UHGV virus genome: UHGV-0202911
Source of the DNA: a virus
Reading direction: 5' to 3' (one strand)
DNA length: 60,966 nt
In this document: one piece after another, positions 44,576 through 44,899 of the stretch
Layout: each line of letters opens with the position of its first letter
How positions within the stretch are numbered: the first letter of the stretch is position 1
Notes under the pieces: generated by a model
Database searches by the model: none
What the model saw: only the letters and a program-made list of their open reading frames with translations
Told to the model about the DNA's origin: nothing
Program-made: the position numbers and the translations under genes

Positions 44576-44899
44576 TCACAATGTTTTAAGGTAATTTATA
44601 AGCTCATATTCCGGATCGTCTCCTCTGGCCGTATATATACTATTATAAAGAAGCCCAAATATCCTATTTTTTTTGAAATTACTCTCTGGATCATTGGGAG
44701 ATACAAAGAACGTTACAAGTCGTTCATAAATTTCTAAAAATCTATTTTTTGTATTATTACGTATAGATATTATTTGGCACGCACAATGCTCTCTCTCTCT
44801 CTCTCTCTCTCTCTCTCTCTCTCTCTCTCTCTCCTGTTCTGAGGGTATAGGAGAAGTATAGGACTTTTCTACAGAAGAAAAAGAGCGAAGTTTAGACAT
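44576..44899 (-). CDS. hypothetical protein containing an (ER)n tract encoded by a (CT)22 microsatellite
   Basis: ORF followed by a terminator; AT-rich. Confidence 0.45.
   Translation of the reverse strand: MSKLRSFSSVEKSYTSPIPSEQEREREREREREREREHCACQIISIRNNTKNRFLEIYERLVTFFVSPNDPESNFKKNRIFGLLYNSIYTARGDDPEYELINYLKTL
44789..44832. repeat. (CT)22 dinucleotide microsatellite
   Basis: counted directly: 44 nt of perfect CT repeats. Confidence 0.9.

Follow-up and report, generated by a model that had tools for sequence, protein, structure and literature searches.

Phase variation through simple sequence repeats (SSRs) is a textbook bacterial bet-hedging device. In Neisseria, the opa genes, which are multicopy chromosomal outer-membrane genes, carry CTCTT pentamer repeats in their leader-coding regions, and in Helicobacter pylori sabA and babB are amongst the genes with CT repeats at the 5' end. 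Phase-variable expression is also familiar from the prophage genes gtrABC, where switching is epigenetic and depends on Dam and OxyR, and the rexAB genes of lambda are an example of accessory genes placed downstream of cI in lambdoid prophages. To our knowledge, the use of repeat-based phase variation by phages was described only recently, all cases being short homopolymers of virulent phages, and we know of no moron under the control of a long dinucleotide repeat.

In H. pylori, hopZ and oipA/hopH possess 5' CT repeats through which slipped-strand events switch the reading frame, and both ON and OFF states are found in natural isolates (PMC12915409). In phages, polyG tracts have been reported in the receptor-binding genes of Campylobacter phages (Sorensen et al. 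2021, as cited in PMC12823448), and T2 agt and T4 rIIA have been described as phage contingency loci on account of their homopolymer tracts (bioRxiv 10.1101/2025.10.21.683753). According to the same preprint, SSRs are overrepresented among phage proteins classed as regulatory and among those that are hypothetical or unclassified; dinucleotide repeats and temperate phages are not mentioned in it (bioRxiv 10.1101/2025.10.21.683753). Within the literature that we searched, nothing specific was found on phase variation in Bilophila phages or on dinucleotide repeats or switches in prophages, nor was a long dinucleotide switch found in a temperate phage.

We focused on the viral genome UHGV-0202911, a stretch of 60,966 nucleotides that was analysed at its full length and is referred to here as the window. 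A sequence-only reading had picked out a perfect 44-nt CT tract (44789-44832) inside a 107-aa minus-strand ORF, where it codes for (ER)n, and had put the gene forward as a candidate for slipped-strand phase variation. A comparison with related loci leads us to think it probable (about 0.7) that this tract acts as a real hypermutable frame switch of a real small gene in a temperate Bilophila phage; that the switching is adaptive is a view that we hold less confidently than the frame switch itself.

Both the raw sequence and Tandem Repeats Finder (CT x 22.5 at 44789-44833, 100% matches) bear out the (CT)22 tract and extend it by one C at 44833, so that the plus strand carries 45 nt of uninterrupted C/T alternation, (CT)22 + C. 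Read on the coding strand, the tract is (GA)22 at 44833..44790, makes up codons 23-37 of the ORF and codes for E-R x 7.5, in agreement with the ORF list. Since the dinucleotide unit is not divisible by three, the gain or loss of a single unit shifts the frame by 2 nt. The length of the tract is also far in excess of chance: in 100 dinucleotide-preserving shuffles of the window, 0 matches to a (CT)10 probe were expected, and a scan of the 61-kb window for mono- to hexanucleotide microsatellites returned this tract, the only one of its kind, together with one (AAAG)3 and nothing else above thresholds. A repeat with a longer unit lies elsewhere in the window, where 9.3 tandem copies (89% identity) of the 15-nt unit CGGCATCCCGCAGGT at 38770-38908, within the minus-strand ORF 38498..38989, form an in-frame pentapeptide repeat.

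Table 1. Features of the repeat gene and of its surroundings in the window, with the basis of each assignment.
Feature	Coordinates	Strand	Basis
Dinucleotide tract; coding strand (GA)22, plus strand (CT)22 + C	44789..44833	-	Tandem Repeats Finder, shuffles, relatives
Complete ORF, 107 aa, ON allele; leader + (ER)n + cargo type A	44576..44899	-	ORF list, homologues P0001-P0008
Leader, 22 codons, MSKLRSFSSVEKSYTSPIPSEQ	44834..44899	-	start codon 5' of repeat
Junction, 16 nt, GCATTGTGCGTGCCAA (= GCATTGYGCGTGCCAA), directly 3' of tract	44774..44789	-	post-repeat sequences, identity profile
Cargo type A, 70 aa, predicted small soluble helical protein	44579..44788	-	frame intact in OFF alleles; pN/pS
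Shine-Dalgarno AAGGAG, 7 nt 5' of ATG	44907..44912	-	sequence; identical in relatives
Intrinsic-terminator-like GC hairpin GCCCCGAAAGGGGC (44571..44558) + T run	44548..44571	-	terminator scan
Putative promoter: perfect TATAAT (44951..44946), weak -35 TTATCT 17 nt upstream	44946..44974	-	sequence reading
Upstream terminator-like hairpin	45034..45050	-	terminator scan
CI-like HTH repressor	45733..46155	-	
Cro-like HTH protein	46240..46497	+	
CII-like protein	46744..47187	+	
Integrase	31629..32744	-	window gene order

In the gene, a leader, the repeat and a cargo follow one another in a single frame (Table 1). The leader MSKLRSFSSVEKSYTSPIPSEQ is without a hydrophobic signal-peptide core, and the first G of the junction (44789) doubles as the final base of the 45-nt alternating tract. 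No restart codon in the cargo frame is present just 3' of the tract in type A, and no ORF of at least 30 aa runs across the tract on the plus strand in the ORF list. Long alternative products from the OFF frames were considered and ruled out, as these frames meet stops 6-12 codons past the tract. The sequence-only reading had given the ORF an intrinsic terminator of its own, and the terminator scan does place a terminator-like hairpin with a T run directly after the stop, a feature that is kept in two relatives (L001 and L020). The perfect TATAAT, 46 nt 5' of the ATG, suggests that the ORF has its own promoter; the consensus scan missed this site because its -35 element fits at 3/6 positions only. 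Furthermore, a minus-strand hairpin lies between the CI operon and the repeat ORF, which would make the ORF its own transcription unit.

The AT-rich island in the immunity region that had been described around the gene was recognised, with a GC content of 0.32 at 45001-46000 against ~0.52 elsewhere in the window and with the CI-, Cro- and CII-like genes adjoining. The repeat ORF itself has the CI operon on one side and, to its left, an array of phage tRNA genes on the minus strand that is preceded by a good promoter-like site (44519..44490); genes for a NinG/HNH-like protein and a DnaD-like replication protein are found further to the right of the CII-like gene. Across the window, the genes run in the order major head, tape measure, J-like tail protein, integrase, early-left genes, tRNAs, repeat ORF, immunity, replication and terminase. 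This order is that of a circularly permuted, lambda-like temperate siphophage genome and not of an integrated prophage with host flanks, so that the term 'prophage' in the sequence-only reading has to be given up; no terminal overlap of the window was found. We take the host to be Bilophila wadsworthia because NCBI assigns one homologue (P0003) to that species.

The setting may be that of a moron, with terminator-like hairpins on both sides, a deviant GC content, conserved flanks around a swapped cargo, and a putative promoter represented by a perfect -10 hexamer that the scan did not call. In relatives, the accessory region contains genes for a PemK-type toxin and for SocA_Panacea, TerB, RelA_SpoT and pentapeptide proteins. 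For a 284-aa protein encoded ~3 kb from the repeat ORF at 40871..41725(-), also in the phage accessory region, there are matches to PDC-S42, a candidate defence family in PADLOC (E = 6e-47), and to phrog_3243 (E = 5e-44). The AT-rich island holds two conserved orphan ORFs, 45062..45343(+) and 45315..45728(-), which are convergent and overlap by 29 nt; the second (137 aa) directly follows the CI gene and has the hydrophobic start MSYSITIADVAGIVTACATVYLTF. Both are called in most relatives with sequence there, and neither has a family match in Pfam, PHROG or PADLOC. The CI-like repressor (140 aa) consists of an HTH domain only, with no peptidase domain, which would fit induction by an anti-repressor, and an Rfam match to sRNA-Xcc1 (15753-15835(-), 76 bits against a gathering score of 53) falls at the start of an Ant-like anti-repressor gene (14762-15889(-)) or shortly before it.

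The tRNA array has peculiarities of its own. A tRNA-like gene at 44215-44302(-), ~270 nt 3' of the repeat ORF, has an abnormal anticodon loop; ARAGORN gives it a 2-nt anticodon, 'aa', and its score lies below the Rfam tRNA gathering cut-off. This odd gene recurs in three relatives; the coordinates noted for tRNA-like genes in relatives are L009 4816-4903, L018 618-705, L020 532-616 and L001 508-582. The arrays of other relatives comprise Met, Leu-UAA, a 101-nt 'Phe-AAA', Ser-UGA and Gln-UUG, a Met-like tRNA in L001 is called with a 4-nt anticodon, 'cata', and the normal tRNAs here all decode A/U-ending codons. A link between the odd tRNA-like gene and frameshift decoding was considered and set aside without supporting evidence.

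The sequence-only reading had asked for two kinds of support from relatives, namely conservation of the ORF and homologues with different repeat counts, and both were found. Eight protein clusters (P0001-P0008) were recovered with the ORF as query. The family is kept in related Bilophila phages, and the relatives come mostly from human gut metagenomes (Bilophila wadsworthia phages), with one copy of the repeat gene per phage genome. The full-length homologues have in common an N-terminal leader, MSKLRSFSSVE..SPIPSE, followed by (ER)n with variable n. Past the repeat, three types can be told apart: type A is that of the window, type B shares 33-39% identity with it, and type C shows no similarity to A by BLASTP. 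All three cargo types carry almost the same leader, and the ~400 nt 5' of the start codon are 95-100% identical between most loci. An identity profile revealed that similarity is lost just past the 16-nt junction after the tract and regained 3' of the terminator, indicating that the ~210-nt cargo is a swapped cassette with the junction as its left boundary. Types A and C share the junction DNA, yet type A translates it as HCACQ and type C, in another frame, as SIARA (SIARA/SMARA across types B and C), and its conservation is thus not explained by the protein. In one lineage (L006/P0004), the leader and upstream region have diverged (16-70% local identity with the window), yet the GA tract is kept, with 11 GA units ahead of cargo A in L006.

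Other collections gave nothing further. Searches of a GenBank phage collection in near and distant mode found no match to the region save a tRNA-Ser. Pattern scans of species-representative genomes for the leader and for the junction were empty, from which we conclude that the element is absent from the GTDB representative genomes searched. Further viral scans with the promoter region and with the 3' end of the cargo yielded no new complete alleles.

A GA tract was found at the same position in all 24 related loci with the region and in all protein clusters, with unit counts in the relatives of 5-8, 11, 12, 15, 17, 18, 20, 21, 22, 23, 26 and at least 27. Since protein-based matches favour in-frame alleles, we carried out a frame-blind DNA scan with the exact first 29 nt of the leader, which are by this design identical in all 11 loci recovered (8 metagenome loci and 3 viral loci, with 0 in species-representative genomes). 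Three of the 11 were ON (20, 23 and 23 units), five were OFF, with products of only 34-47 aa (6, 18, 21, 21 and 26 units), and the remaining three contigs stop within the tract (at least 20, 26 and 27 units). A second protein search, with a profile of the truncated products, returned seven OFF clusters of 31-43 aa, one of which (P0010) is an OFF allele of the window's own haplotype, and a search with cargo C returned ON alleles of 94, 96, 98 and 102 aa. ON alleles differ in ER number and give products of 94-108 aa. Thus, ON and OFF alleles coexist in nature.

Taken by cargo type, the unit counts are 6 (OFF), 7 (ON), 11 (ON), 17 (OFF), 22 (ON, the window) and 26 (OFF) for type A; 17 (ON) and 16+TA+6 (ON) for type B; and 11 in three loci (ON), 15 in two (OFF), 17 (ON), 18 (OFF), 20 (ON), 21 in two (OFF) and 23 in two (ON) for type C. 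In one group with identical sequence for 200 nt upstream and 230 nt downstream, the tract alone differs, with 7 units (ON), 17 (OFF) and, in the window, 22 (ON), and two more groups with identical 430-nt flanks have 11, 20 and 23 units and 11 (ON) and 21 (OFF) units. This implies that the tract changes far faster than the surrounding DNA gains substitutions. We also noted that all five type C OFF alleles with the common leader (L009, L011, L023, L024 and P0012) have counts divisible by three (12, 15, 15, 18 and 21), each being an ON length plus one unit and none an ON length minus one unit; slippage that favours one direction, or uneven sampling, may lie behind this pattern, in numbers too small to judge.

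The sequence beyond the tract has been maintained in OFF alleles. No OFF locus has a stop in the cargo frame between the junction and the normal end of the gene, and the tract is the only lesion. For the cargo, Nei-Gojobori estimates of pN/pS were 0.15 in type B and, across five haplotypes, 0.08-0.40 in type A, from small counts. The four haplotypes of type C show 0 nonsynonymous differences and are separated pairwise by only 1-2 synonymous changes. Judged by these ratios, the cargo is under purifying selection, with counts that are small and all point in the same direction. Frequent natural OFF alleles together with purifying selection form the pattern of a contingency gene and not that of a decaying pseudogene. 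Together with the length polymorphism between identical flanks, these data lend support to the candidate phase-variable gene that the sequence-only reading had proposed.

To explore what the ORF might encode, we generated a structural model with AlphaFold2 from a shallow alignment of six sequences (mean pLDDT 86). In this model, residues 1-20 are disordered, a helix at residues 21-65 spans the ER tract, which thereby lies in a long continuous helix with pLDDT >90, and two further helices follow at 73-89 and 96-106. Searches of Pfam with the ORF gave only a sub-threshold, low-complexity match to DUF3915 on the ER tract; PHROGs and PADLOC had no family for the ORF or for its two island neighbours; an exhaustive phmmer search with cargo A against 1.84 billion representatives found its own cluster only; and a search with cargo C found leader-bearing copies only. 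Foldseek against the PDB returned generic helical bundles (best E = 2), and against BFVD it returned one uncharacterized 102-aa protein from a Siphoviridae sp. virome (E = 1.8e-4, 34% identity over 105 columns), which we take to be of the same family. The gene lies in the phage accessory region beside the repressor, and for this reason we regard a costly accessory function expressed in the lysogen, such as superinfection exclusion, defence or counter-defence, as the most likely role, albeit with low confidence. Given a cargo with no homologues outside this lineage and no informative fold match, we put forward an adaptive benefit of switching only tentatively.

The observations on allele frequency and function would also suit a neutral history, in which an unstable microsatellite in a dispensable gene mutates fast and passes between ON and OFF without adaptive value. 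The ON fraction of 3/8 amongst frame-blind loci is close to the random 1 in 3, so that nothing in the populations sampled points to selection for ON, and the lack of a family or fold match for the cargo also speaks for this reading. However, we consider this explanation unlikely, given that a pure tract has persisted at all loci, whichever of the three cargo types they carry and even behind a diverged leader, although long SSRs are generally counter-selected in prokaryotic genomes (PMC3315296). Moreover, the OFF alleles are free of secondary lesions, purifying selection on the cargo requires that it be expressed and useful often enough, and, with the tract so close to the 5' end, frameshifts produce clean nulls.

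Alternatively, the tract might serve mainly as a tunable ER helical spacer, as a homopurine-homopyrimidine mirror repeat whose H-DNA would act on transcription or recombination, or as a GA-rich RNA element, the change of frame being a side effect. The position of the ER tract within a confidently predicted helix and the range of ON product lengths would fit a spacer, and the cassette breakpoint, which falls exactly at the tract and junction, would fit a role in recombination. Nevertheless, roughly one natural allele in two is out of frame and codes for only 31-47 aa, so spacer tuning cannot be the main effect. As the principal explanation, we hold these roles to be quite improbable; spacer, H-DNA or RNA roles could coexist with frame switching.

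Assemblies are affected by the tract. Both ends of a 55.9-kb viral contig (L019/L020, IMGVR_UViG_3300045988_159668) fall in the tract. One end bears the leader and the opposite end a cargo identical to that of the window, which fits a circular assembly opened at the tract, and another contig (L001) starts just past the expected tract position. Such breaks are no more than a hint of switching within a clonal population. The relatives all come from short-read metagenome assemblies, in which long dinucleotide tracts are prone to mis-assembly or truncation, and four contigs break at or within the tract, a sign that assemblers have difficulty there; but that the length variation is merely a product of PCR stutter or low-complexity collapse around a uniform tract is very improbable, as a range from 5 to at least 27 units far exceeds stutter of 1-2 units, counts recur across independent samples and assemblers (11 in three loci, and 15, 21 and 23 in two each), tracts of up to 54 nt fit within single reads of 100-150 nt, and one allele (L005) has a fixed internal interruption, 16 units + TA + 6 units.

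Returning to the frame switch as our preferred reading, we propose that the tract is a hypermutable SSR in the 5' third of a small, moron-like accessory gene, in which slipped-strand mispairing at replication would add or remove 2-nt units. One tract length in three would join the start codon and leader in frame to the ~70-aa cargo (ON), and with the other two lengths translation would stop 6-12 codons beyond the tract (OFF). The switch would be reversible and fast within one lineage, expression would follow the frame, and the whole may amount to adaptive bet-hedging. The unit would be self-contained, consisting of a putative promoter, a Shine-Dalgarno sequence, the 22-codon leader, the repeat, a cargo and a terminator, and the same promoter region, leader and repeat would drive at least three interchangeable cargo cassettes within the phage lineage. 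This raises the possibility, which we offer tentatively and regard as distinctly less secure than the frame switch, that the promoter region, Shine-Dalgarno sequence, leader and (GA)n form a portable phase-variable socket into which unrelated cargoes would have been recombined at the repeat and junction; a lysogen function that carries a cost, be it superinfection exclusion, defence, counter-defence or even control of induction, would thereby come under stochastic ON/OFF bet-hedging.

If the frame switch is real, phage phase variation would come to include a temperate phage whose host is a human gut pathobiont, a long dinucleotide tract such as those of Helicobacter, a gene next to the immunity region with probable expression in the lysogen, and a module with interchangeable cargo. 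Should the socket hold as well, the locus would be modular and, for temperate phages, the first contingency locus built on a dinucleotide repeat. It would offer a testable system for the role of small orphan phage accessory proteins and for the payoff of stochastic expression. In practical terms, such tracts break metagenome assemblies and yield apparent pseudogenes, along with 'genes' of 30-45 aa in protein catalogues.

Compared with known systems, the locus resembles H. pylori hopZ and oipA in its CT/GA unit, in the 5' coding position of the repeat a few dozen nt after the start, and in the logic of its frames, and the phage tract (22 units in the window, and up to at least 27) lies at the long end of the range reported for H. 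pylori. However, the H. pylori genes are chromosomal and carry the repeat in the signal-peptide region of a large surface protein, whereas the gene described here belongs to a temperate phage, has a leader without a hydrophobic core, and has a soluble helical product of ~100 aa with no homology to the Hop proteins. A signal-peptide repeat and Hop homology, the hallmarks of Hop-type genes, were both absent, and no Pfam match exceeded threshold; the repeat gene is therefore an analogue of the Hop-type genes and not one of them.

Like the T2, T4 and Campylobacter phage loci, the gene would combine a hypermutable simple repeat in a non-essential phage gene with reversible frameshifts and population heterogeneity. 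Those loci, however, are homopolymers of ~6 nt or more in virulent phages and were shown experimentally, whereas here a 44-nt dinucleotide repeat lies in an accessory gene next to the immunity region of a phage whose integrase and CI/Cro/CII-like genes mark it as temperate, and the data are comparative. The conserved 5' leader with a pyrimidine-rich repeat, the variable downstream parts and the independent switching of frame in each gene recall Neisseria opa, although the opa repeat unit is a pentamer and the genes are multicopy with homologous cargo, while the phage carries one copy and no similarity could be detected between cargoes A and C. As in lambdoid morons and rexAB, the gene is a small AT-rich insert beside the repressor, with its own terminator and a putative promoter, amongst genes of accessory, toxin-antitoxin and defence type. 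In summary, the kind of mechanism proposed here, SSR contingency, is already known from these systems, and it is the modular socket of leader and repeat that would be the most unusual feature of the locus.
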